A DNA stretch of 64,000 nucleotides from a virus (IMGVR_UViG_3300017971_000041:2677-66676), one strand, 5' to 3'; counted from the stretch's first letter, positions 10,644-52,192 are shown. A program made the numbers and translations. Notes: generated by a model not told the origin, from the letters alone.

Positions 10644-12482
10644 ATGCCCGCGAAACAAAAACAAATATTGGTAACAGGATTCCCCAGATCTGGGTTTGGC
10701 AGCTTAGGTCGGATTCTAAAACTCAACAGCATTCATGTGGGCCATGAGACAATTGAAGAACATGGGACTGTCTCATGGTGCCACACTGGGTACGGGAAGC
10801 TGTCATGGCTTGATGAACCAGTTAAAGACGTGCGAGACAATTCTGATATTATTGTCCATCTTGTTCGATTTCCACTAAATGTTATAGCTTCAGCAGGGAC
10901 ATTGACCGTGGAAGTAATTAATTTTATGCGGCAAAATTTAGGGAAACCTGAATTGACCACGGTAACGTTGGCTGATGTAGTTGAATTGTATCTTGATTGG
11001 AATCAACGGATCGAAGACAGTGATCCACATTGTTGCATAAAAATTGAAGACTTGAATGATTCGGCAGCAGTTCGGGGACTGATTGATCGCTTACGGGCTC
11101 CCATGGCAGCGGCCTTTTATCAAGATAAGATCGAAAAGGACTTCAATGCTCGCTCACACCAACAGCTGAATTGGCGTATTTTACGAAACGAATTGCCGAC
11201 TGAATTGTTTGATCGGTTGGTTGCTAAAACGGAATCATATGGGTATCCGATTCCTGAACCAACCACCGTGGCTGTGTGTATCATGGGGAAAAATGAAAAG
11301 CATTACCTCGAATCGTTGGTTAAAAGTATTAAAGAAGTTAGCCAGCCGAAATCAAAATTTTATGACCGGGCTGTGTATCTCGATACCGGTAGCACTGACG
11401 GGTCAGTCGAGTTTATGGAAAAAGCAGGATTCGAGGTTCATCGAACTGAGTGGCAAGACAATTTCTCTCTGCATCGGAATGAGCTTATTGATATTGTCAA
11501 AACTGGATGGATCGTGATGGTTGATTGCGACGAACGATTAGTTGGTCATTTCGGGCTCCTGAAGGGTCTCCTCAGCGATGTTCCCTATGATGTCAATGCT
11601 CTACGAGTTCGTATGGAAGATTTTAAAAATGGCAAGGCCTCGATGGTGTGGAATGTTGAGAAAATATTCCGGGCTGATACGTGCCGCTATGAATCCCGCG
11701 TCCATAATCAATTGAAATTCGAAGGGACCGCGCCCCAATGGATGGATGGGAAAATTGAGCACCATGGCTATGATATTTCAAAAGAAGCTATGGATAAGAA
11801 AATGGCCCGGACCCAAAAATTGCTGGCAATGCGGTTAAACGAAAATCCAGACGACCATGATGTTTATTTTTACATGGCCCAGAACGAATCGTATTTTAAT
11901 AATTATGAGACGGCATTGGGATACGTTGAGAAATATATCGAGGCTTATGCAAATAATTCGAAAATCAATAAATCGATATATCTGATTTATTGCCAGCTTC
12001 TTTATAATCTCGACCGGTTCCAACAACTCGAGGGCGTATATGAATGGTTACTTGTGAATTCCACACATGACCTTGATGTTTATTATCACATGACGGTTTA
12101 TGGGATTTCAAAGCGAAAGAGTCGATGGATAAAGATCGGGACAGAAAATTATATTGAAACCAGTCTCCGTTTCCAGCAATCGCCGGAACTCATGAACTCG
12201 TTCTTTTTTCACTACCTCGGCGATGAGCATTCCATTTTCATTTTGTCGGCAAATACCACGGAATTGTTTCGGTTAGCTGTAGAACGCCATAAGTACTTGC
12301 ACAAACTTAAGTCAATCGTCCCAGAGGGCCATACTTTTGCAGCCAACGTTGACAAACAACTGAAACGATATGGAGTCACTATCGGCTCGAATGTCCAGAC
12401 CGCGAAGTTGAACAAATGGAAAGACAAACCCTACCGTGGTAAGAAAAAATCGAAAAGGGTCCGCCGCGCAAAAAGGCATTAA
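10644..12482 (+). CDS. Sulfotransferase-like domain fused to GT2 glycosyltransferase and TPR region
   Basis: N-terminal 'ILVTGFPRSG' (PAPS-loop-like) and 'HLVRFPL.VI.S'. GT-A motifs 'CIMGKNE', 'LDTGSTDGS', 'W.DNFS.HRN', 'VDCDE', 'VHNQL', 'HHGY'. Helical C-terminus. Confidence 0.8.
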   Translation: MPAKQKQILVTGFPRSGFGSLGRILKLNSIHVGHETIEEHGTVSWCHTGYGKLSWLDEPVKDVRDNSDIIVHLVRFPLNVIASAGTLTVEVINFMRQNLGKPELTTVTLADVVELYLDWNQRIEDSDPHCCIKIEDLNDSAAVRGLIDRLRAPMAAAFYQDKIEKDFNARSHQQLNWRILRNELPTELFDRLVAKTESYGYPIPEPTTVAVCIMGKNEKHYLESLVKSIKEVSQPKSKFYDRAVYLDTGSTDGSVEFMEKAGFEVHRTEWQDNFSLHRNELIDIVKTGWIVMVDCDERLVGHFGLLKGLLSDVPYDVNALRVRMEDFKNGKASMVWNVEKIFRADTCRYESRVHNQLKFEGTAPQWMDGKIEHHGYDISKEAMDKKMARTQKLLAMRLNENPDDHDVYFYMAQNESYFNNYETALGYVEKYIEAYANNSKINKSIYLIYCQLLYNLDRFQQLEGVYEWLLVNSTHDLDVYYHMTVYGISKRKSRWIKIGTENYIETSLRFQQSPELMNSFFFHYLGDEHSIFILSANTTELFRLAVERHKYLHKLKSIVPEGHTFAANVDKQLKRYGVTIGSNVQTAKLNKWKDKPYRGKKKSKRVRRAKRH

Positions 12483-15867: not shown

Positions 15868-16209
15868 ATGATTTGTATATCGAGTACCATTGGGAGTGGT
15901 CGTTCGGTACAATTCCAGGAAACAGGCGAGACGATATTATACAATTTAAAAGCCCGTTTGTCTCATTCTGAATTATTAGATGGGACTTCATTCGTCTTAC
16001 ATTCCGGAACGAATGTTGGGGACATGACACCTAACATTTCCGCGGATTATGAACCGACACTCTGGGCAACTTTAAAAGAGATTCATGAAAATGATTCGAC
16101 AGTTTTATTATCATGTAAGGAGGGGCTGTTTTTAGCTTACATCGATTTTCTGTCTTTAAAAGGGACCCAGATCCAAATAACTATGAGGATCCAACAAAGG
16201 GAGACATAA
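15868..16209 (+). CDS. Putative distal tail protein
   Basis: Directly after the tape measure; 'RLSHSELLDG' motif; 113 aa. Confidence 0.45.
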   Translation: MICISSTIGSGRSVQFQETGETILYNLKARLSHSELLDGTSFVLHSGTNVGDMTPNISADYEPTLWATLKEIHENDSTVLLSCKEGLFLAYIDFLSLKGTQIQITMRIQQRET

Positions 16210-17354
16210 TGATAGCCGCCGCGTTGATGTTACGCCCAGATGAGTCTGGGCTAGAAAAATGTTTAAATTCAATAGACCCAATAGCAGACGAAATTGTCGC
16301 TGTTATCACGGGGGAACCGAGCCAAAGAACCAAACAGCTATTGTCACGATTTAATGTACAGTTCAATACCACGGTTTGGCGTGAAGATTATTCATATCAC
16401 AGAAATCAATCTTTCGACATGGTAAGTCCGGAAGCTGATTGGATCTTGCGTATTGACAGCGACGAGGAATTGATTTTACTGGACAAGAACCAACTGATCA
16501 ATACACTCAAAACTGCACCAAAAGAAGTTGATTGTTGTAGATGCAAAATGAAGGACTACCGTGGTAATACCGTCGTGATGGAATTTCCGCAATTGCATTT
16601 CTTTCGCGCAGGAACTGTCCAGTGGCGATATCGAAAACATAATACTCCTATATTTGCTGGAGAAATTATGCATCTCGATTCGTGTGTAACACACCATTAT
16701 GGGTATGATCTTGAGCCGAAAGCCATGGAGGCAAAACGGCAAGAAGCAATTCGGTTGATCAAATTGACGATGCAGGACTATCCCGGTGAGTATCCCGGAG
16801 ATTTTTATCTTTCCCAGATTTATGCACAGGATAAACCCAATGAAGCGATTAAACATCTGGTAAAATACATTGCCGAGAATGAAGATTCACCAGGATTTTT
16901 GAAGGCTGCTTATTCGTCTCTGAATTCCTTGTATGAAAAACTGGGAGAGACTGATAAGGCAATGGAAATTTTAAAAAGAGGTCTGGAGAAATTACCTCTG
17001 GATCTCGATTTAAATTTTCTTTTATGCCATCAATCTGTTCGAGATAACGATTACCAGTCGATGGTTAAAGGTGCGGAGAGATACATTCAAGCATGGAATA
17101 TTTATAAAAAACATGTTGACTTTTATGATCATTTTTGTTATTTTCATACGGATGAACACATTAGATTCGTATTGCATAAACTGGCCATTGCTCGGCTGCA
17201 AGAAGGAATTAGTTACGTTAATCACTTTTTTGGATTTGCGGATACTGATAACATTAATGACATAATGGTAAAAGACTTATCAATCCTTGGCATTGATTGG
17301 GAATGGGACGTCAATTATCCCATCGATGCTCAAAATATCCTAAAAGGAGTTTAA
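16209..17354 (+). CDS. GT2 glycosyltransferase with TPR repeats
   Basis: 'LEKCLNSI..IADEIV.V.TG', 'W.EDYS.HRN.S', 'WILRIDSDE', 'KHN', 'HHYGY', TPR-like helices. Confidence 0.85.
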   Translation: MIAAALMLRPDESGLEKCLNSIDPIADEIVAVITGEPSQRTKQLLSRFNVQFNTTVWREDYSYHRNQSFDMVSPEADWILRIDSDEELILLDKNQLINTLKTAPKEVDCCRCKMKDYRGNTVVMEFPQLHFFRAGTVQWRYRKHNTPIFAGEIMHLDSCVTHHYGYDLEPKAMEAKRQEAIRLIKLTMQDYPGEYPGDFYLSQIYAQDKPNEAIKHLVKYIAENEDSPGFLKAAYSSLNSLYEKLGETDKAMEILKRGLEKLPLDLDLNFLLCHQSVRDNDYQSMVKGAERYIQAWNIYKKHVDFYDHFCYFHTDEHIRFVLHKLAIARLQEGISYVNHFFGFADTDNINDIMVKDLSILGIDWEWDVNYPIDAQNILKGV

Positions 17355-36630: not shown

Positions 36631-36960
36631 TTAGCGCCTCCTATAATAAAGTTTTTCGGTAGAAAGTAAATAGTTGTAAAATCGAACTAAGAAAATTTCT
36701 CGGGTTGGGATTCGTCCCCAGTATAATTGAAGCTTTTTTAATTTGTTGATTTCTCGAGTCAGGTTACCCCGCTCAGGGCCCTCGCACGTTGGTTCTCCAC
36801 GTTTTATGATACAGAACTCATATACCAAGAGGAAGTACTCATTCATTGTATTTTTCATCGTGTTAAGGTCCTGAAAGCGGATATCCCGTTCAACGATCTC
36901 GAGGACAAATCGCTTGAAATCCTGCAATGTACAATTGATTTTTTGTCCATTTATTATCAT
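36631..36960 (-). CDS. Hypothetical protein
   Basis: 109 aa, coupled to the ligase. Confidence 0.55.
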   Translation of the reverse strand: MIINGQKINCTLQDFKRFVLEIVERDIRFQDLNTMKNTMNEYFLLVYEFCIIKRGEPTCEGPERGNLTREINKLKKLQLYWGRIPTREIFLVRFYNYLLSTEKLYYRRR

Positions 36961-38150
36961 TTATCCCATCGCCATCCCTTAAATCGTGGTTGTCGGAGTG
37001 AGCCTTTTTTCGTTTCTTCTTTATACTCGATTGTAGCAACTACGCCCATGAATCGATCTTTGTTTTCCCAAATGTATGAACGGACCAGGGTTTTTTCATT
37101 GCCTAAAAGGACCGACTTAAATCCCGTCCCAACCCGAACTTCTCGATTTTTATACTGGACGACAATACCCCCGAGCGACCCTTCGTTTGCCCCCGTCCCC
37201 TCGTAGAACCCGATAACTCGACAATCAACGGATTTTATCGGGACTCGCCTTTGCCAATCATAACCACGTTTGTCTTTGTACAGTGAATTTGGATCATAGA
37301 TTACGATTCCTTCCTCTCCATCATTAACACTCTGGGCGAAAAATAAATCGAGCTCCTTAAATGAATTAATCGGGTAGTGAGGAATGAGTTGGATGTGACT
37401 TGAACCCAACACTCCCGTCTCGAAATGTTCAGCTAATATGTTATAACGTTCGGCCTTTATAGCCTCCACGGATGGGATGTCAAAGACATTCAAAATCGCG
37501 GTTGGAAGTTGTTGGTGGTTGCGAATCAATCCCGAGGCGGAATCGAAGTGGTGGCCTGGGACTGTAATCTCGGCGTCGAGTTCGTATGGATACGATTCCA
37601 ATGCTTCAAGCAAATGGTCGACTCCAAGGACTTCATGGCCAGACCGTGTTACGAGCTTTCCCCCTATGTATCTTCCTCGGACTCCGTCTTTTTTGACTGC
37701 AGCCAGGACCGGGATTTTTGTGCGTTTTTTCTTATACGATTTTAAAAGCATTACCGAGGGCTTTTTTGACCCATCGAAAGTCAATGGAATGAGGCCGGGG
37801 AAAACGGTATTAATTGTCCGAATTCCAATACCAGCCCGGAGATCTCTGTCGATAATACGCTTTGCCAACTCACATGTCGGTCCGTCCATTGCTTGCAAAC
37901 ATTGCCGGACTTTCATTTCAGCTTCGGCCCCAGATAATTCCCTCGTGGATAATAAATCGAGCATTTGAAAAAACGAATCCTCGAGAATGTTTACGGAGCC
38001 AGCCCCTCTGATGTCAGGAGCTGTGATAAAATATTTTTTAAAAGGATTGTATGTATATTCTAAGATCTCCCGTAGGTGATGATTTTTATTTAAAATTTCT
38101 TGTTTCTTATGGCCGGATGCACGACTGATACAATCAATGATCTCTAACAC
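36957..38150 (-). CDS. ATP-dependent DNA ligase
   Basis: 'KKDGVR' motif I, 'LDAEI', 'VFDI', 'EGIV', OB domain 'VGTGF', 'SLRQPRF...RWDK'. Confidence 0.93.
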   Translation of the reverse strand: MLEIIDCISRASGHKKQEILNKNHHLREILEYTYNPFKKYFITAPDIRGAGSVNILEDSFFQMLDLLSTRELSGAEAEMKVRQCLQAMDGPTCELAKRIIDRDLRAGIGIRTINTVFPGLIPLTFDGSKKPSVMLLKSYKKKRTKIPVLAAVKKDGVRGRYIGGKLVTRSGHEVLGVDHLLEALESYPYELDAEITVPGHHFDSASGLIRNHQQLPTAILNVFDIPSVEAIKAERYNILAEHFETGVLGSSHIQLIPHYPINSFKELDLFFAQSVNDGEEGIVIYDPNSLYKDKRGYDWQRRVPIKSVDCRVIGFYEGTGANEGSLGGIVVQYKNREVRVGTGFKSVLLGNEKTLVRSYIWENKDRFMGVVATIEYKEETKKGSLRQPRFKGWRWDK

Positions 38151-40998: not shown

Positions 40999-42987
40999 CT
41001 ATTTTTTATATCGTTTTGTTTCGAATCCAGCCGCCTTAAGTGGAAAACCAGTGTATACTTCGTCTCGATTACACATGATTTTATTGACTTCATCAATCGA
41101 GACCCCTCCATCAATCGGGGTTTCAATCACGACTTCGTCGTGGACAGTCAAGATTATTTTGTGTCCGAGTCTTTCGAGATCCAAGACAGCTTCCATCAAT
41201 ATCTCCCGACACATTGCTTGAGTTGCATTTTCAGCCAATCGACCAGGAGTCAATGACACCCGTCTCCAACTGTTTTTTGAAGTCATCCCCAGGTGTGTTA
41301 CAGATTGAGTCCAACCCCAAGGCGCCTTTACTTCCTCCACCCGTGGTTTATAATATGCTAGGGCTTTCCCGTTGGGGAGAATCAAAAAAAGAAATCCTTG
41401 ATGGCTCATAAATTGGATGTATCCAAATGAGGTCAAGGTACCTTGATTGATGATTGCGTCTTCAGCTGCGTCTTTGAGACCATACCAGAATTCTTTTACA
41501 TGATAATATTTTTCACGGAAAATATCGATTGTTCGTTTTGCTCCAGCCATGTCAAGATTGAAGCCTCTCATTAAACAATCCTCGAGGAATTTCTTGGCCC
41601 CCATCCCATATCCGCACCCGAGAATTGTAAGCTTCCCGTGTCGTCTCATTTCGGAATCCTTTGGGATTTGATCATAGGACAAGTCGTAAAGTGAAGTCGC
41701 CATATCTGTATACAAACACAATCCGTTTTCAATTTTCCGCAATGCATCTTCTTGTCCGGCTAACCAAAACAAACCACGGTTTTCGACTTGTGAGTAATCA
41801 GACACAACAAATTTATATCCAGGAGGAGCGGTGATAGAGGGGCGTATCAACGCGGAACATGCATATAAGAAGTCAGGAAAGACACCCATCAAATCGACCA
41901 ACGAATCATTTTTAAACATTTCAATGGCTTTCTCGATATCCATTGATTTGATTTCAGCTCGAGGCAAGTTTTGAGGCTGCAATAAACGGCCTCCCTCCCG
42001 CCCCGTGGTAGCTCGATGGTATTTAAGACAATCACGGATTCGCCCGTCGAAACACACAGCTTGCTGTAGTTTGGGGAATTTTTTAATCGAACTTTTCCCA
42101 GCTGTTTTTCGAATTTCAAGTAACGTTTTAACGCCCGGAAAATTATCAATCTCTGGATCTTCGAGACTTTTTGTAACAGTGTCAGCAGTCAAGTCTGGCA
42201 ATTCATATCCCTGCGATTCGCACCATTGGAGGATTTTTGCTCGTTGATTAATTGTTTGGACTTTATTGCCAGTTATGATTCCGACCATCGCCGTAACATC
42301 TTCGAGATATTCCTCGGTTCGATTAACCACGGCATCGATTAATTCGAGATCAATCGGAATTCCGCGTTCATTTTTTCGGACGGTATGGCGCCAAATTTCG
42401 AGTTCATTACCAACGTAGCCCCAGGGAAGTTTGGTGAGGATGGCACGTTCGGCTTCCACGTCCTGGATGCAGTAGTCGTACATTTCTTGATAAAGGTCCG
42501 GAAATAGTTCCTTTGTCCATCGAATGTACGGGTTTTTCTTTGATGGTTTTTGTGGTTTCGACAATTTCTGAATTAAATATGATCCCCGTTTGTCTTTTTG
42601 GATTGCCAATTTCAGGACCTCACCACATTTGTCAAGAGCCAACGGGAGAGCGAATGCCGAAGCAATTGCTTGTGTGTCACGGTATTGGTTGAAGGGAATT
42701 TTCGGCCAAGCGAATTTTCTCATGCAAACATAATTCCAAAGATATCGCTCGAAGGCAACATTCCAGCCATATACCAAGTATCCGGCCTCGATTCGCTCAA
42801 ACAAGTCAACCGGCGGTGGAAGGTCTGGGTGCCAGAGTCTGGGTTCTTCATCATTGAAAGCATATGCCAGACAGATGATGTCAGTTGAGGGATCCATTGC
42901 ATATCGACCCGACCCAACAACTTTAATGTCAGCTTTCGAATATGACTCAAAGTCCATGTTTATTCGGGGGCTTTTATCGTCTTCCAT
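40999..42987 (-). CDS. DNA polymerase family A with 3'-5' exonuclease domain
   Basis: 'DFESYS', 'NVAFER', 'YCIQDV', 'TGREGG..LQPQNLPR', motif A 'DYSQVENR', motif B 'R.HGK..ILG.GYGMG', motif C 'VHDE'. Confidence 0.96.
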   Translation of the reverse strand: MEDDKSPRINMDFESYSKADIKVVGSGRYAMDPSTDIICLAYAFNDEEPRLWHPDLPPPVDLFERIEAGYLVYGWNVAFERYLWNYVCMRKFAWPKIPFNQYRDTQAIASAFALPLALDKCGEVLKLAIQKDKRGSYLIQKLSKPQKPSKKNPYIRWTKELFPDLYQEMYDYCIQDVEAERAILTKLPWGYVGNELEIWRHTVRKNERGIPIDLELIDAVVNRTEEYLEDVTAMVGIITGNKVQTINQRAKILQWCESQGYELPDLTADTVTKSLEDPEIDNFPGVKTLLEIRKTAGKSSIKKFPKLQQAVCFDGRIRDCLKYHRATTGREGGRLLQPQNLPRAEIKSMDIEKAIEMFKNDSLVDLMGVFPDFLYACSALIRPSITAPPGYKFVVSDYSQVENRGLFWLAGQEDALRKIENGLCLYTDMATSLYDLSYDQIPKDSEMRRHGKLTILGCGYGMGAKKFLEDCLMRGFNLDMAGAKRTIDIFREKYYHVKEFWYGLKDAAEDAIINQGTLTSFGYIQFMSHQGFLFLILPNGKALAYYKPRVEEVKAPWGWTQSVTHLGMTSKNSWRRVSLTPGRLAENATQAMCREILMEAVLDLERLGHKIILTVHDEVVIETPIDGGVSIDEVNKIMCNRDEVYTGFPLKAAGFETKRYKK

Positions 42988-42989
42988 GT

Positions 42990-43751
42990 TTACTCCTTGT
43001 ATTGAGGAAGGTTTGATGGTAAAGTTTCGTGAATACCTTCGGTTATTTCATGGTTCTTATCGATTTTACCGATTGCCATTACTGAGATTGCTGCCATTTG
43101 CAACAGCCGCTTCTTTAGCTCAATTCGCCAGTGGGGATTTTGTAACGAGATTTGTGAAATCTTATCAAGACGTTTAGCAAATACTCGTCTCATTTCCTCC
43201 AAACCCATCCCGTGGTTCATGTCAGACCAAAGAAATTCTTGGACGGTCCTGGCGGCTTTAATCGTTTTAGCGATTGCTAATTCTTCGAGGTCAAGGGCAG
43301 CTTGTGTGTCTTGATATTGGATTTCCTTGATATTAGCTTCCCGGATAAGGGCATCGCGGCAATCGCTGGATAAATAGTGTTTGATATAGTAAATTCGTTT
43401 AATTTTTGTCGTTGATATCAGTTTAATACAATTAATACAAGGTCGTACTGTACAATATAACTCTGTGTTTGTCAACCCTTCTTTTCCACAGGATTTTAAT
43501 CCCTCGATTAAGACATTTACCTCAGCGTGTATTGCCGGACATTTATCAAGGTCTTTTCCTGAATTGTCGCCTTTAGGATTTCGTTTACAGGTTTCACAAT
43601 GGGGGTGACCAGATGGGGGCCCATTGTAACCGGTTGCAACAATTCGACTATCTCGGACCAACAATGCCCCAACCCGACGACTGAGGCACGTTGACCGAGC
43701 GGCAACCAATTTTGTGATTTCCATAAAATAATTTTGGCGGCCGAGTCGCAT
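42990..43751 (-). CDS. dCMP deaminase with a helical C-terminal extension
   Basis: 'RSTC..R.VGA', 'TGYNG', 'HAEVN', 'PCINC'. Confidence 0.9.
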   Translation of the reverse strand: MRLGRQNYFMEITKLVAARSTCLSRRVGALLVRDSRIVATGYNGPPSGHPHCETCKRNPKGDNSGKDLDKCPAIHAEVNVLIEGLKSCGKEGLTNTELYCTVRPCINCIKLISTTKIKRIYYIKHYLSSDCRDALIREANIKEIQYQDTQAALDLEELAIAKTIKAARTVQEFLWSDMNHGMGLEEMRRVFAKRLDKISQISLQNPHWRIELKKRLLQMAAISVMAIGKIDKNHEITEGIHETLPSNLPQYKE

Positions 43752-43754
43752 GAT

Positions 43755-44450
43755 TTAGAATTCTCCTTTGACATGGGCGTGGAAAGTATGTAACGATCCG
43801 ATGTTATGATAAAACCACCCGGGGGTAACGCCAACTTGGTCAGCGATATATTGCATCAATTTGATCGTGGTATATACATCCGATGCATAAAATAAAACAT
43901 AATCACACGATCTCTGGGAATAGATAACGTGTAATTTATTTCCACGGATGAAGAATTGATAAGTCAAAGAGCACGGGACTCGGTCGCGGCCTCCCCAGTT
44001 CATCATGTCTTTGTTCGATTCATACATGGAAATAATTGCCTGGCGAGTATTCGGACGTTCTTTCAATTCCTGAATAACGTACGGAATCTGGGCCTGCCAG
44101 CGTTCGGGATAGGCGTAAGAGAAACAGCCATTGCGGATATAGGGTTTCCAAAAATCCTGTCGAATTTTCCAAGCTTCGCCGGGATTTTTATTGACGATGG
44201 AAAAATCCAGTCGTTCGGCAATTTCTGCATGGACCCAATCAATATCCATGTTCATGTAAGCCAGCAATTCCTCGAGGTCGTTGTACTGTTGAATGCAGTA
44301 GGAATAGCTCATGAGTTCGAGAGTCCGGAAGTCCGGATCGTCGCCGACGTATTTGTCTTGTACGGTATCGGACTGGTATTCGATTCCCATTTCTTTCAAT
44401 TCCCGTGCTAACTCTTTAGCACACTCGATAGTCGATTGATAAACTCTCAT
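43755..44450 (-). CDS. Thymidylate synthase homologue with dCMP-type specificity residue (dCMP hydroxymethylase/methylase-like)
   Basis: 'TRQAI', catalytic 'VPC..TYQF.IR', 'QRSCD......SD' with Asp at the position of E. coli ThyA Asn177, 'IGSLH'. Confidence 0.8.
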   Translation of the reverse strand: MRVYQSTIECAKELARELKEMGIEYQSDTVQDKYVGDDPDFRTLELMSYSYCIQQYNDLEELLAYMNMDIDWVHAEIAERLDFSIVNKNPGEAWKIRQDFWKPYIRNGCFSYAYPERWQAQIPYVIQELKERPNTRQAIISMYESNKDMMNWGGRDRVPCSLTYQFFIRGNKLHVIYSQRSCDYVLFYASDVYTTIKLMQYIADQVGVTPGWFYHNIGSLHTFHAHVKGEF

Positions 44451-44575
44451 TATTTTCCTCCGTTAATAAAATAATAATATGAATAACACGTACCCAATGA
44501 TGAAAATACTTAAAATTGTGTCAGAATTCATGATGTTTCTTTCATAACACACATGGATGTCAGAGTCAATAAATT

Positions 44576-45721
44576 TTATCTGCCAAGGTGTCTCTGGACG
44601 ATTTTATTTTGTTTGGCTAGTCGAACACATGAAGGCCGGTATCTGGGTCTCTCGGTCAAAAATGCATGAAATTGATCGATTAAGAAGCCCGGGAATTCAC
44701 ACGGGATACATCTCCCGGTTTGACGAATTAGCGTCCCATTCATGTTGTGGCGCCAGGTGCCATCGTCTTCAAGTTTTTCGGAATAAAAAATAAAGTCATC
44801 GGGAAAGCCCATGATTCGAGCTCGTTCACGGATCGTTGTTGGTAAGTTCGTTACTGGGTGAATGATCGGGTTGGTACCAATCAGTGTCGGGGAAGGCCCA
44901 TCGTACTTCGGTTTTCGAAAACCGAAATGGAATTTCTGTTCACCACGGTCATTGATATAATGTAGGGGTTTGTTGTCCTTTTTATCCCTGAAGATCTTTT
45001 GTACTTCTCCCCAGTTCATGGGTCCATCACGAAAAACCCGATTCCCAGCACGGGCTGAACTGTGGATTGAATGGAGAATATGGTTCGGCAACCTCCCGTG
45101 GCAGTCCTCAAGGTCCCGGATAACTTCTTTCAATGATTTCCCAATGTTGCGTTCGCCCGGCATGAATTGGTAGCCTAGATCGTGCAAGGAGGCAATAATA
45201 AACAGACGGTTCCGGTTCTTTTGGGAATTACCGTAGTGATAATTCGATACATATTCCACGTCAATGTGGTAATCAGGCAACAGAGATTTGTACAGCTCTG
45301 GCGGATTTGCTTCAAGGGATTTGGGAAGGTTGTCAAAGAAAGCAAACTTCGGTTTAATGACATTAACTATTCGAATCCATTCAAGAAACTCATCGGAGGC
45401 TTTCGATGCATACTCTTTACGTTCTGCCCCTGTTTTGTTGACGAGATTCGAATAGCGTCCACATTTCGGGTGTCCCCCGATAACATCGACCTTTCCAACC
45501 AAATCCTTTTTGATAAAGTCTGGCAGTTCGCTGTCTGATTTGACGAGCCAGGCGCCGGGGAAATTTTCGAGGAAGGTATTTCTGCCGTTTTCATCGAAGT
45601 GATGGCAAAACCCCCGAGGTTCAATGTTCCCATATAATTTATGGCCAGCTCTATGGGCATAAACGAATGGTGACCCGATTCCCGCATATACACCCAACAT
45701 TTTCAAAGGTCTTTCAATCAT
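44576..45721 (-). CDS. Divergent C5-cytosine DNA methyltransferase-like protein
   Basis: Motif I 'YAGIG', IV 'GGHPKCG.YS', VI 'FDNLP', VIII 'Q..RNRLF', IX 'TIRE.ARIMGFPDDF', X 'QTGRCIP'. Confidence 0.75.
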   Translation of the reverse strand: MIERPLKMLGVYAGIGSPFVYAHRAGHKLYGNIEPRGFCHHFDENGRNTFLENFPGAWLVKSDSELPDFIKKDLVGKVDVIGGHPKCGRYSNLVNKTGAERKEYASKASDEFLEWIRIVNVIKPKFAFFDNLPKSLEANPPELYKSLLPDYHIDVEYVSNYHYGNSQKNRNRLFIIASLHDLGYQFMPGERNIGKSLKEVIRDLEDCHGRLPNHILHSIHSSARAGNRVFRDGPMNWGEVQKIFRDKKDNKPLHYINDRGEQKFHFGFRKPKYDGPSPTLIGTNPIIHPVTNLPTTIRERARIMGFPDDFIFYSEKLEDDGTWRHNMNGTLIRQTGRCIPCEFPGFLIDQFHAFLTERPRYRPSCVRLAKQNKIVQRHLGR

Positions 45722-45778
45722 TATATTTTCTCCAAGTAACAAGCATTTAATTCGTTATGGTTCATGGGGGCCTTTTAT

Positions 45779-46405
45779 TTAATAATTCGAATTTTGCCGG
45801 AAAACATTGACCAATGCTTTTTTATGATAAAAAACATACAAAGCTTCCATTGACCCGACATGGTGAAAAATCGTATTCAACAAAGAAACGTAGCCGAGGA
45901 CCATCGAACTCACGAATCGGTTCCAGTCAGTTAACACATGGGTGTTTTTCCACGGTTTGTTTTTAAGGAGATTGCAGGCTATTCCAATGTGATAGGTGGT
46001 ATTCAGCATTTGCAGTGGATCCTTTACCAAGTCAACCGTCGGGCGGGGGGTGTATTTCTCGAAATGGGTCGGTTGGATATCACACAGAATGAGCATTTCG
46101 GTATAGAAGTGCAAGGCGTCAATCAATTCTTCGACCAGATGTACCTTGCTGTGGTCCGCGGCTTCGATGGCTTCGGTAATTTCTTCTGTTACACGCCAGG
46201 CATAGTCTTTGATAATGTATTGCCAAACCGGGTCGTCAATCGAAAACGGCCGACCAACAACGAAACCCAAGCCCAGACCATTGCCTTCCTCAATGCCTTT
46301 ATATTTTTCGTGCAATTCCGCCTGTCTGGCGAAGATTCCTTTAATTTGTTCGAACGGTGTTTTTGGGATGACTAATCCTTTTACGTCTGCGTCGTTGACA
46401 TTCAT
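45779..46405 (-). CDS. All-alpha dimeric dUTPase/MazG-like NTP pyrophosphatase
   Basis: 'EEITEA', 'EELIDALHF', 'KPWK', 'Y..K..VN.FRQ..NY'. Confidence 0.82.
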   Translation of the reverse strand: MNVNDADVKGLVIPKTPFEQIKGIFARQAELHEKYKGIEEGNGLGLGFVVGRPFSIDDPVWQYIIKDYAWRVTEEITEAIEAADHSKVHLVEELIDALHFYTEMLILCDIQPTHFEKYTPRPTVDLVKDPLQMLNTTYHIGIACNLLKNKPWKNTHVLTDWNRFVSSMVLGYVSLLNTIFHHVGSMEALYVFYHKKALVNVFRQNSNY

Positions 46406-46463
46406 GATTTTTCCTCCTATTGCAATTTAATAAGTTTAACATTGTCCACGTCATTGACATGGT

Positions 46464-46976
46464 TTAGGTTTCGTAACCAGCCTCTCTGCATATTCTTTTT
46501 AATCGTATCATAGACAAATTTCGAAAGTCAACAGGAATCACTTTTAAATCAAGAATTGTCGAACAATGGACCATAATATTTTGGTATCGAGTATAAATAT
46601 CAAAGTACCGTTGTCGAACTTGCTCCACGTGTTCTTTGGATTTATGTTCTTTCTGGTTCAAGTAATGCAATTTTGATTCCAGATATTCCCATCCGGGGTT
46701 GCAATATATAATAAAAGGATTTAATTTTTGTAGTGCGTTCCACAGTATTTCGGGTTTGACAAGGATTTTACCACGGAGGGTGCAATATACTTGTTCGGAA
46801 ATACACGGGTGGCGGTCCAAAAGCATGTCCTTCGGAGTATTTTCAATTCGGGCCATAATTTCTTCAGGTGACTTCGGAGGCGCACCGAAATGGTGAATTT
46901 TCAAACCAGTGAATTCCGAAAGATGCCTCCCAACCGTGGTTTTCCCAGACAAATCGGGTCCTTCTAATAATATCAT
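46464..46976 (-). CDS. dNMP kinase (thymidylate-kinase-like)
   Basis: 'ILLEGPDLSGKTT', 'DR...SE.VY...RG'. Confidence 0.85.
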   Translation of the reverse strand: MILLEGPDLSGKTTVGRHLSEFTGLKIHHFGAPPKSPEEIMARIENTPKDMLLDRHPCISEQVYCTLRGKILVKPEILWNALQKLNPFIIYCNPGWEYLESKLHYLNQKEHKSKEHVEQVRQRYFDIYTRYQNIMVHCSTILDLKVIPVDFRNLSMIRLKRICREAGYET

Positions 46977-49990: not shown

Positions 49991-50395
49991 TCAATAGAAA
50001 AGTTTCCCGGTCAATAAAAACAATAACCGATTCCAAAAGCCCAGATTTTTAATTCGCCGGATAGTTTTTTCGAGATCCGCGATTTCTGTAAGGTTCAAAG
50101 CCTCTTTTATTTTTAATGAATCGACTTCATAACTCAATTGACTTAACGAATGGAGGGGAATATTCAACAATTTATGTACTCGTTCAGTAAAACCAATATA
50201 AACAGGCTCCTTCTGTCCAGCAAAATAAAACGGCTGGGGATAGACCTTTTCAACTTGCGTCTTCGGTTTCGTTGACAAATCTGTGATATGGTTTGAAGTC
50301 AAATAGGGAGCTATGGTTTTGGTCAATACTTCGGTTCCAGCCACATTGTGAGTCTCTATTGTTTTGATATCAGTAATTATAATTGCTTTTTTCAT
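49991..50395 (-). CDS. Hypothetical protein
   Basis: 134 aa. Confidence 0.55.
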   Translation of the reverse strand: MKKAIIITDIKTIETHNVAGTEVLTKTIAPYLTSNHITDLSTKPKTQVEKVYPQPFYFAGQKEPVYIGFTERVHKLLNIPLHSLSQLSYEVDSLKIKEALNLTEIADLEKTIRRIKNLGFWNRLLFLLTGKLFY

Positions 50396-50442
50396 AATAC
50401 CCCCGTAATTAATGACGGGATGTTGAGTCCCATCGTTTGGAT

Positions 50443-51213
50443 TTATTTTCTCACAGCAATTTCATTATTGGTAACGGCTTCCGACAATTCGAAAGTATAA
50501 TCATACAGATGCAGGCCCTTCGAGGTTGCAATGATTTGTCCGTTGTCGACTCCGATTTCCGAGGCACAAATTTGCTTTAACATTTCGATTATGGCCAAGT
50601 TTGCTGGAAACCCAGACCATAAATCCCAGGACCGGAAATAAGGAAAGAAATGCAATGCTCCATCCTGAATCCGAGTATCGATATGGCGTAAGCATGGCGG
50701 ATCGACCAAGCTCATGTCCGAAGGTTTGGCAATTTGTAGGACCATTTGGTTGTTTCGAGGCCCAAACGCCTTATACGTCCGAATCATGTAATCGACTTGA
50801 TTTAACAAAACACATGGATTTGATCGTAAAGAGGTGAAAATACCACGGAGGAGGTCGATGTTAGTTTCTCGAACTTCCGTGGTGATATCTTGTGCATATA
50901 AACGGTTTCCATAAGTATATGCTTCGTTGTCATCTATGTCAGGAGTCAAAAGGTATTGGGAATATCCCTCGACATAGCCTTCTTGAACGGGGTCCGGCAG
51001 TCCCAAAACGGGGTTCAGTTGAGGCAACATGGGATTGTCCCACGGACGTCGGATGTGGATAGTTACGAAATCCAGCTCGAGTCGTTTGCTTAAAGCAAAG
51101 GATCCTTTATCAATGTTAAATGTTCGGCCTTCGGTAACAGCAGCATATACTGCTTGGAACCAAGCATCGGAGATTGTTACTGCATCAATTGAAATAGGCT
51201 TAAGTACGTCCAT
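50443..51213 (-). CDS. Thymidylate synthase (dUMP-type)
   Basis: 'YTYG.R', 'DPPCLR', 'FRSWDLWSGFPAN' with Asn at the specificity position, 'LHLY'. Confidence 0.88.
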   Translation of the reverse strand: MDVLKPISIDAVTISDAWFQAVYAAVTEGRTFNIDKGSFALSKRLELDFVTIHIRRPWDNPMLPQLNPVLGLPDPVQEGYVEGYSQYLLTPDIDDNEAYTYGNRLYAQDITTEVRETNIDLLRGIFTSLRSNPCVLLNQVDYMIRTYKAFGPRNNQMVLQIAKPSDMSLVDPPCLRHIDTRIQDGALHFFPYFRSWDLWSGFPANLAIIEMLKQICASEIGVDNGQIIATSKGLHLYDYTFELSEAVTNNEIAVRK

Positions 51214-51656
51214 TATCTTCCTTTCTGGGGCTTGTCAATTGGTCCCTTTTTGCCTTCTGAAATCGGACCATTGTTAAAATCGGGGGCGGCAATTCGGGGG
51301 ACATCCTCAATTTCGATCACCCGGGAAATATCCATCCAGGCCGAGTCAATGAGCTTTCCTTCCCTTGCTTGGGGGGTTACAAGGGCCTGGATACATCCCG
51401 ATAAATCAAATGAGATCGAGGTAACGATTCCCCTAAAACCAGTTACTTTATCTCGTACGGGCTTACCCAACATGGATATATGAGTCATGGTGTTCTCCTT
51501 TCGTATGGTAAATTGATTTTCGTTCAGCCAACTATGGAATTCTTTAGCTGTGTAATAACATTTGTCTGGGTCTCGAATGCACAGATGTCCTTCATCGTAC
51601 TCGATCAGGGCCTGGCATTTGACGTCTTTACAAAATTCGTATTTTTGATATCTCAT
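51213..51656 (-). CDS. Hypothetical protein; may be two genes (internal RBS and ATG at 51488)
   Basis: Cys-rich N-half; C-half 'LG..VRD.VTGF.G.V......GC' common in phage proteins. Confidence 0.6.
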   Translation of the reverse strand: MRYQKYEFCKDVKCQALIEYDEGHLCIRDPDKCYYTAKEFHSWLNENQFTIRKENTMTHISMLGKPVRDKVTGFRGIVTSISFDLSGCIQALVTPQAREGKLIDSAWMDISRVIEIEDVPRIAAPDFNNGPISEGKKGPIDKPQKGR

Positions 51657-51664
51657 GTCAACCT

Positions 51665-52192
51665 CTAAAATATTATTTGTTTCATGAACGAAACGGTTCC
51701 TTGGCGTAGATTTCCACGTTCGGGGCGATTCGTGAAAATATAGTCATAATCGAATTCCATTGACAGAATGTCAGCCGTGCAGTCTGGTACCGGTTTATTC
51801 GGATCCCGGACGAGTACGGTTATAAAATCGACTGGACACTTTTGTCGAAGTTTATTGATTTCCTTCGGCTCCCGGACATGTACAAATAAAACGAATGGTT
51901 GTCCGAGGTTCCTGCAAGCCCGGATTTGTTGAAGAGTCTCCTTCAACGGGAAATCACAGTAGTCGATGGAAAGCCACTTCAATGTTTGCCAATGGTTCCT
52001 CAATTCGTCCGTCTTGCCTTCGTCGCCTTCTTTGATTCCGACCATTGCACAAGCTTTTTTAATTGTATCAATGGTCGAATAATTAAAAGACCAAACCCCG
52101 TGGCGGTCCAATAGCTTGCGCAGTTCCTCAACAAAGGTGTCCTTTCCGTGGCCACCTGGGCCATTTACAACAATAACTTTTTGGATTTCCAT
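51665..52192 (-). CDS. P-loop dNMP-kinase-like protein
   Basis: 'VNGPGGHGKDTF', 'FVHVREP.EI', 'YDYIF.N'. Confidence 0.75.
   Translation of the reverse strand: MEIQKVIVVNGPGGHGKDTFVEELRKLLDRHGVWSFNYSTIDTIKKACAMVGIKEGDEGKTDELRNHWQTLKWLSIDYCDFPLKETLQQIRACRNLGQPFVLFVHVREPKEINKLRQKCPVDFITVLVRDPNKPVPDCTADILSMEFDYDYIFTNRPERGNLRQGTVSFMKQIIF

Follow-up and report, generated by a model that had tools for sequence, protein, structure and literature searches.

A candidate CmoX-like carboxymethyltransferase within a probable cytosine-modification operon of a virus

The stretch of viral DNA considered here, IMGVR_UViG_3300017971_000041:2677-66676 (64,000 nucleotides; hereafter the window), makes up nearly the whole of a complete virus record of 66,676 bases with direct terminal repeats. 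Its plus strand carries a siphovirus-like structural module and its minus strand a replication module. Within the latter lies an operon of six consecutive genes, spaced by 2 to 125 bases, whose third product, MTl, is predicted from its sequence to be a DNA cytosine C5-carboxymethyltransferase. As a probable carboxymethyl-adding enzyme, MTl would be a new part of such an operon and would point to a route of cytosine modification not described before. The six genes, with their family matches and expectation values (E), are:

46464-46976, minus strand: kinA, a P-loop kinase resembling deoxynucleoside monophosphate (dNMP) and thymidylate kinases (PHROG 761, thymidylate kinase, E 4.5e-10)
45779-46405, minus strand: all-alpha NTP pyrophosphohydrolase of the MazG / HisE / dimeric-dUTPase superfamily (PHROG 12184, E 2.6e-15)
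44576-45742, minus strand: MTl, an enzyme of the C5-cytosine methyltransferase fold in a CmoX-like clade (PF00145, E 1.2e-14)
43755-44450, minus strand: TS-Asp, a homologue with the thymidylate synthase (TS) fold (PF00303, E 1.2e-17)
42990-43751, minus strand: cytidine deaminase of the dCMP/dCTP family (PF00383, E 1.9e-21)
40999-42987, minus strand: PolA, a family A DNA polymerase and the final gene of the operon (PHROG 17, E 3.6e-92; PF00476, E 6.1e-18)

An earlier note on this DNA had proposed six co-oriented genes at this locus, and their presence, common strand, close spacing and family matches bear it out. The neighbourhood survey for which it had called recovered the same order, from kinase through pyrophosphatase, MTl, TS-Asp and deaminase to PolA, in related viral contigs; thus, the arrangement is not a matter of chance. 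Near-identical DNA is absent from 50,697 phage records.

MTl, the METHYLTRANSFERASE-like gene of the operon, probably starts at the ATG at 45721, which yields a protein of 381 amino acids, the length also of its database copy. Its AlphaFold2 (AF2) model (predicted local distance difference test, pLDDT, 91) adopts the standard C5-methyltransferase fold, and Cys94, the motif IV nucleophile, is invariant in 30 aligned sequences. The family is marked by the motifs GIGS, GHP[KE]CG, DNL, QxxRxR and QTG[KR]xxP, among which GHP[KE]CG stands in place of PPCQ/SPPC, DNL in place of ENV and QTG[KR]xxP in place of GN. At the positions of the canonical motifs PCQ (IV), ENV (VI) and GN (X), the window protein thereby reads KC-G, DNL and GR, where the motif X of M.HaeIII is GNAVP. 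The earlier note had spoken of a divergent C5-methyltransferase and of an uncharacterised hypermodification. MTl is more than divergent, as it has the basic residue by which CmoX selects carboxy-S-adenosylmethionine (carboxy-SAM), and through this residue the supposed hypermodification gains a concrete candidate chemistry.

CmoX of Synechococcus phage S-B43 is reported to be homologous to C5-methyltransferases and to form 5-carboxymethylcytosine with carboxy-SAM as cofactor (Nat Commun 2025, PMC12783734). Its structure (8YF3) shows the carboxymethyl group held by Arg350, which stands at the site of Asn304 in M.HhaI; by the same account the R350N variant is dead, wild-type SpCmoX refuses S-adenosylmethionine (SAM), and an engineered M.MpeI, N374K, gains the same neomorphic carboxy-SAM activity (PMC12783734). 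An hhalign comparison of the MTl family with a CmoX orthologue—a cyanophage protein with a match to 8YF3 along all 372 residues (E 1.4e-228)—returned a probability of 97.8% and placed QTGRCIP on VGRMVPP, so that Arg344 of MTl falls at the position of Arg350 of SpCmoX and Asn304 of M.HhaI. Of 124 family sequences, from partly overlapping sets, 76 have Lys at this position, 25 have Arg and 3 have Asn; the pattern was unmatched in 20. Relatives of MTl number 70 in a collection of 5.8 billion proteins, and none is named beyond "cytosine methylase".

The surroundings of MTl were compared across 54 related viral loci with their flanks; a search with the single MTl sequence recovered no relative, and an alignment was needed as the query. 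A TS homologue lies within the flanks of 50 of these loci, and three of the remaining four are cut at a contig end near MTl, leaving L058 as the only MTl locus with flanks yet without a TS. All 50 linked TS homologues have Arg143, Asp169 and Asp177 (E. coli ThyA numbering), and the genes of these operons often overlap by a few bases. In 37 of the 54, a 455-residue protein combining glutamine-amidotransferase and Asn-synthase domains lies between the kinase and the pyrophosphatase. It is CmoY-like: the CmoX paper gives the name CmoY to such ligases and describes its second-largest ligase cluster as of the glutamine-dependent type, which could not be expressed (PMC12783734). Since an amide ligase needs a carboxyl group, the MTl family most likely installs one. 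The ligase is absent from the window and from its closest relatives, i.e., the subclade with Arg and HPKC. Three relatives (L016, L025 and L048) have the MTl-like protein joined to an N6/N4 DNA methylase domain, which argues for a DNA substrate, and in one (L056) an intein that bears a homing-endonuclease domain splits the protein, which argues for a needed enzyme.

Archetypal CmoX was sampled through its 80 best loci, which all belong to the cyanophage lineage and are at least 86% identical to the query and hence form a narrow sample. CmoA is found in 64 of the 80, including 19 of the 19 loci of at least 9 kb, and a CmoY-like gene in 48, while six TS queries detected a TS in none of the 80. 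The words "thymidylate synthase" do not occur in the portion of the CmoX paper available to us (PMC12783734), and our literature search found no paper linking a CmoX-type enzyme with a TS homologue.

TS-Asp was aligned with TS-Asn (the second TS homologue of the window), E. coli ThyA, T4 gp42, the TS of the Xp12-like phage Bosa and AfhB of HY126. In E. coli numbering it has Arg143, Cys146, Ser147, Arg166, Ser167, Asp169 and Asp177, the last lying in QRSCDYVLFYASD. The earlier note had placed an Asp at this position, as the alignment does, and had invoked the rule by which Asn177 selects dUMP and Asp177 selects dCMP; the literature available to us uses the same rule, and it is applicable to TS-Asp. 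The TS fold, Cys146 and Asp177 of the dCMP-specific enzymes are all present in TS-Asp, which is predicted to act on dCMP and to yield a 5-substituted dCMP.

As to the substituent, a hydrophobic residue at position 143 is reported to go with methyl products, as in ThyA, and an acidic one with hydroxymethyl products; TS-Asp has Arg143 where a T4-type dCMP hydroxymethylase has an acidic residue. TS-Asp stops about 10 residues past GSLH, as do T4 gp42 and HY126 AfhB, and is without the C-terminal segment by which ThyA and the Bosa TS extend 40 to 70 residues past this motif. Hydride transfer by ThyA requires closure of its C-terminus; the short C-terminus of TS-Asp therefore leans toward a hydroxymethyl rather than a methyl product, and we consider the former the more likely. 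The ThyA-like C-terminus and an adjoining dihydrofolate reductase (DHFR) gene, which we take from phage Bosa as marks of the Xp12-type dCMP methylases, are both wanting in TS-Asp, and a Pfam scan of the open reading frames (ORFs) found no DHFR in the window. The closest PDB entry to TS-Asp is the HY126 dCMP hydroxylase (9IQU/9IQC; 57 bits, E 1.6e-14), with ordinary TS, MilA and T4 dCMP hydroxymethylase (dCH) scoring more weakly (E about 1e-6 to 1e-8). Membership of TS-Asp among the 5-hydroxy-dCMP synthases is nonetheless rejected: these are reported to carry Asn169 (D169N; NAR 2026, PMC13326640), and TS-Asp keeps Asp169 (QRSCD) despite 9IQU being the nearest structure.

The Arg-x-Pro-Cys signature of the TS-Asp clade occurs in 554 viral stretches, a clade far larger than the MTl family. 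Among the closest 80 of these 554 loci, the pyrophosphatase is a neighbour in 73, the deaminase in 57 and MTl in only 20 (phmmer) or 21 (clustering). The position immediately upstream of this Asp177/Arg143 TS is taken in 57 of the 80 by a paralogue of 250-330 residues, as in these examples:

L099:4645-5469 (among loci L081-L141): TS-fold paralogue
L001:7184-7954 (Clostridium phage P21): TS-fold paralogue

This paralogue, which is not found in the window, has no Pfam match, and its family profile retrieves only chance matches among PDB sequences. Its AF2 model (pLDDT 91.8) has the TS fold, with the HY126 dCMP hydroxylase, MilA and T4 dCH as nearest structures, and an invariant Cys, Arg and Asp align with Cys146, Arg166 and Asp177. 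MTl and the paralogue occur together in none of the 80 loci, and two have neither. This mutual exclusion suggests that one and the same TS homologue can be paired with either of two different enzymes that attack cytosine at C6. Cultured Clostridium perfringens phages also carry the paralogue (E 3.7e-84), and nothing on DNA modification turned up in the accessible literature on Clostridium phages with this sister module. The polymerase of one sister operon (L099:6842-9397) is of family A, has 851 amino acids and bears an N-terminal extension, whose opening resembles by eye the motifs of uracil-DNA glycosylase; a family of polymerases fused to this glycosylase is described from phages with modified thymine.

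The remaining genes of the operon fit the handling of a nucleotide pool. The kinA translation has the P-loop GPDLSGKT, its homologues occupy the same operon position in related loci, and it would phosphorylate a modified dCMP. The pyrophosphatase scores just above the cut-off of Pfam dUTPase_2 (23.3 bits against 22.9; E 8.8e-5), and also matches PRA-PH (E 0.0025) and the dimeric dUTPase of PDB 1w2y (E 2.6e-4). Its family profile aligns with the T4 gp56 dCTPase/dUTPase (hhalign 93%, E 3.4e-7) over only 49 C-terminal columns; phmmer with the window protein gave no match in the PDB, and plain BLASTP against gp56 gave E 0.078. It is predicted to be a cleaner of the dCTP/dUTP pool. The deaminase has the zinc motifs HAE and PCxxC (PHROG 174, E 2.8e-41; NCBIfam ComEB, E 3.4e-25). 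It further bears a C-terminal extension of about 100 amino acids, which is absent from the deaminases of 141-166 amino acids in relatives L005 and L099 and is covered by no family match.

The MetaGPA study (eLife 2021) reports that TS, PRA-PH pyrophosphatase and dCMP deaminase domains co-occur specifically on contigs with deamination-resistant cytosines, with Asp177 as the top discriminating residue. A later preprint counts a TS within 3 kb of 104 among 149 deaminases from modified contigs, as against 17 among 277 from unmodified ones; it finds that a deaminase encoded beside an Asp177 TS prefers 5-methyl-dCTP and proposes it as a maker of dTTP, and notes that Xp12 also incorporates 5-methyl-dCTP into its DNA (bioRxiv 10.1101/2024.12.05.627091). 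The core of TS, pyrophosphatase, deaminase and PolA is thus an already published module of modified-cytosine phages, and this signature, the Asp177 rule and the gp56-related C-terminus of the pyrophosphatase lend partial support to the cytosine-modification reading of the earlier note. Two counts in the supplement of the MetaGPA study are uninformative for the MTl clade: DNA_methylase is on 6 modified and 846 unmodified contigs (depleted, p 0.40), and Asn_synthase on 6 and 255 (enriched, p 0.059).

To these genes, whose identities, key residues, conserved synteny and co-occurrence are described above, we assign a scheme of two layers in which every substrate and product is inferred, and which we favour tentatively, at somewhat short of an even chance. 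A 5-substituted dCTP would be made before replication, and a CmoX-like step drawing on carboxy-SAM of the host would follow after it. In the first layer, the pyrophosphatase would return dCTP (and dUTP) to the monophosphate, TS-Asp would add a one-carbon group at C5 of dCMP, the kinase would begin the re-phosphorylation, and the adjoining PolA would consume the product, with the deaminase diverting part of the (modified) cytidine pool to thymidine-type nucleotides. In the second, Cys94 of MTl would attack C6 of a flipped-out DNA cytosine, and the carboxymethyl group would come from carboxy-SAM, as in CmoX, bound in a cofactor pocket predicted to have Arg where ordinary methylases have Asn. The targets might be cytosines left unsubstituted or the product of the TS itself. 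In many relatives the ligase of the glutamine-amidotransferase/Asn-synthetase type would then amidate the carboxyl; as the window phage has no such ligase, its modification would end at the free acid.

Several points weigh against this scheme. If replacement of cytosine were full, C5 would be occupied and MTl would have no substrate, so the two layers are compatible only if the replacement is partial or the acceptor of MTl is different. No CmoA turned up in the window, across the complete genome, in any flank of the 54 MTl and 80 TS-clade loci or in five whole related contigs, three of these being at least 90% complete; the control search was positive in 10 of 14 genomes. Carboxy-SAM would then have to come from the host, a supply that is assumed here, although E. 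coli's own CmoA is reported to suffice for CmoX in vivo (PMC12783734). MTl also departs from CmoX at two conserved sites. Its motif IV, GHPKCG, falls outside the SPPC filter of the CmoX survey, and an invariant Asp137 (of DNL) stands where CmoX has a conserved active-site Glu (of ENV) that contacts the cytosine N4 (PMC12783734); among 73 matched family sequences, motif VI is DNL in 64, ENL in 5, ENV in 3 and DNV in 1. Foldseek with the MTl model places ordinary methylases above CmoX (M.HaeIII and M.HhaI as top matches, 8YF3 at rank 8; E 1e-16 to 1e-17). Arg143 of TS-Asp is neither hydrophobic nor acidic, and its product is accordingly unpredictable from the position-143 rule. Further, the 50,697 records of cultured phages hold no close homologue of MTl, the best being 24.7% identical.

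The conflict over C5 would vanish if MTl were the second step of a single pathway and acted on the base made by TS-Asp to give an undescribed cytosine derivative. This could be by O-carboxymethylation of the hydroxyl of 5-hydroxymethyl- or 5-hydroxycytosine, as CmoB does on tRNA ho5U, or by activation of the base through an attack at C6, with the hydroxyl exchanged for a different group. We hold this to be unlikely, though by no means negligible. The dependence between the two enzymes is asymmetric (a TS in 50 of 54 MTl loci, MTl in only 20-21 of 80 TS-clade loci), the operon genes often overlap, the HPxC and DNL changes are confined to the TS-linked clade, and the archetypal CmoX lineage has CmoA and in 0 of 80 loci a TS. 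The slot of MTl, moreover, is filled in 57 of 80 loci by the TS-fold paralogue, which keeps its Cys, Arg and Asp and never accompanies MTl. With much the same modest likelihood, MTl, or in sister phages the paralogue, would be such a second-step enzyme, and an undescribed derivative of cytosine would be present in the virion DNA; one candidate is a carboxymethyl ether of 5-hydroxymethyl- or 5-hydroxycytosine, comparable in DNA to the cmo5U of tRNA, which the ligase would amidate in relatives. Yet there is no natural precedent for a C5-methyltransferase fold acting on a 5-substituted cytosine, O-alkylation does not require the invariant Cys, and TS-Asp, keeping Asp169, has no 5-hydroxy signature. 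The archetypal comparison, too, draws on one lineage (at least 86% identity), and the co-occurrence may equally reflect two jointly selected protections. Even so, the one-sided dependence, active-site changes peculiar to the clade and the alternation with the paralogue suggest that such a single pathway is favoured beyond what the missing precedent would allow.

A simpler account takes MTl for an ordinary SAM-dependent DNA cytosine-5 methyltransferase directed against restriction, whose position in the operon has no chemical meaning. Pfam and NCBIfam label MTl a DNA methylase, M.HaeIII is its best match by fold and by sequence (8YF3 coming second in the PDB sequence search), the Cys, QxRxR and SAM-binding motifs are kept, no CmoA is encoded, and the N6/N4 fusions resemble multi-specific phage methylases. 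What makes this account improbable is the change of the motif X Asn to Arg or Lys across almost the whole family: carboxy-SAM is the cofactor of the only such enzymes, basic at that position, to have been characterised, and SpCmoX refuses SAM. Moreover, the amide-ligase neighbours (37 of 54 loci) would be senseless for a methyl product, and the link to a TS is near-obligate. We rate as the least probable of these readings one in which TS-Asp and the deaminase serve mainly the supply of thymidylate, by a route proposed for Xp12-type phages that leads from dCMP through 5-methyl-dCMP and 5-methyl-dCTP to dTTP. MTl would in that case modify the DNA cytosine, and only once replication is over; in sister phages the paralogue would do so at the nucleotide level. 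The 5-methyl-dCTP-preferring deaminase beside an Asp177 TS, for which the same route was proposed (bioRxiv 10.1101/2024.12.05.627091), and the deaminase in 57 of 80 TS-clade loci speak for it, and it would both remove the conflict between full replacement and a C5-transferase and explain the alternation of MTl with the paralogue. It sits poorly with a TS-Asp that is without the C-terminal segment of ThyA and the Bosa TS, with no DHFR nearby, unlike Bosa, and with a phage that has a second TS homologue bearing Asn177; Xp12 itself, furthermore, also incorporates 5-methyl-dCTP.

That second TS homologue belongs to a separate nucleotide cassette (49991-52192), which runs from an ORF of 134 amino acids (49991-50395) to kinB and includes a protein of 147 amino acids (PHROG 37639):

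50443-51213, minus strand: TS-Asn, a second divergent TS homologue (PF00303, E 1.5e-10)
51665-52192, minus strand: kinB, a second dNMP-kinase-like P-loop protein (PHROG 139, E 2.8e-6)

The cassette sits between genes for a helicase and a Cas4-like nuclease. It is absent from the nearest relative, L005, where these two adjoin, and thus looks inserted. The alignment gives TS-Asn an Asn177 and an Asp143 and no ThyA-type C-terminus; NCBIfam TIGR03283 matches it with E 1.8e-25, under the cut-off. Thus, the Asn-type TS that the earlier note had placed at 50443 is there with its Asn177, but Asp143 makes a plain dTMP synthase doubtful, and by the position-143 rule a dUMP hydroxymethylase is possible. 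On its residues, TS-Asn may make dTMP or, possibly, hydroxymethylate dUMP, and the thymine of this phage may be modified too.

Elsewhere in the window, an ATP-dependent DNA ligase is encoded at 36957-38150 on the minus strand (PF14743, PF01068); the MetaGPA study (eLife 2021) lists both of these ligase domains as associated with cytosine-modified contigs. No TET/5mYOX domain was found by Pfam in the 81 ORFs of the window. The earlier note was right that no glucosyltransferase adjoins the operon, though two paralogous genes for glycosyltransferases of family 2 (GT2, GT-A type; PHROG 13126) lie in the tail module at 10644-12482 and 16209-17354 on the plus strand, one with a tetratricopeptide (TPR) repeat. 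The pair could glycosylate virion proteins or DNA; a preprint describes GT-A enzymes that glycosylate phage DNA and are associated with TS homologues. Restriction palindromes, which that note had read as a sign of chemical protection, are indeed plentiful (GATC 254 observed against 265 expected; TCGA 495 against 449; GAATTC 31 occurrences). The median ratio of observed to expected counts is 0.96 for 6-base palindromes and 0.99 for all 6-mers, and the lowest 4-mers are CTAG (0.68) and GGCC (0.76). This amounts to a mere want of avoidance, which is weak evidence and does not establish protection. An attempt to infer the host from PolA and the capsid protein gave best matches that are only about 30-33% identical and scattered over many phyla.

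Whether a phage evades a given restriction or CRISPR defence is determined by its base modifications, which have also been a repeated source of tools for sequencing epigenomes and labelling DNA. Not until late 2025 was carboxymethylcytosine reported to occur naturally, in a single lineage of cyanophages that encode the synthase for the cofactor themselves (PMC12783734). If the reading of MTl as a carboxymethyltransferase is true, its clade would extend this chemistry to phages without CmoA and provide the first tie between carboxymethyl chemistry and the nucleotide-level TS route of cytosine replacement. That two different C5-attacking enzymes so strictly replace each other next to one TS homologue is a concrete puzzle in its own right.

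Among known systems, CmoA/CmoX/CmoY of S-B43, which make 5-carboxymethylcytosine and its glycine amide (PMC12783734; 8YF3), share with MTl the C5-methyltransferase fold, the catalytic Cys and the basic Arg344/Arg350. Asn-synthetase-type amide ligases likewise adjoin many members of the MTl family, whereas the window phage has none. The family differs from CmoX in having GHP[KE]CG rather than SPPC, DNL rather than ENV and mostly Lys rather than Arg; no CmoA was found in the window phage or its relatives, and the constant partner is the Asp177/Arg143 TS together with pyrophosphatase, kinase and deaminase. The reported 5-hydroxy-dCMP synthases (RB69 gp48, DLP3 gp80 and HY126 AfhB; PMC13326640; 9IQU/9IQC) resemble TS-Asp in Asp177 and a short C-terminus, but D169N is missing from TS-Asp and all 50 MTl-linked TS homologues, which have Arg143 rather than Glu. 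In the 5-methylcytosine phages of the Xp12 type, an Asp177 TS is similarly reported to be followed by a deaminase of the dCMP family, with a PRA-PH-type pyrophosphatase and PolA near (bioRxiv 10.1101/2024.12.05.627091); the Xp12-like Bosa TS, unlike TS-Asp, has Asn143, a long ThyA-like C-terminus and a DHFR next to it. Unlike T4, the window phage has Arg143 in its TS-Asp (Asp in T4), only about 25% identity to T4-like enzymes, a single operon beside a family A polymerase with a CmoX-like gene inside, and no T4-type glucosyltransferase. Nevertheless, the set of activities predicted for the window is the same as that of the hydroxymethylcytosine pathway of T4 (dCMP hydroxymethylase gp42, dCTPase/dUTPase gp56, dNMP kinase gp1, deaminase cd and synthase td): an Asp177 TS without the ThyA C-terminus, a further TS homologue, a pyrophosphatase whose C-terminal part is related to gp56, a deaminase and a kinase.

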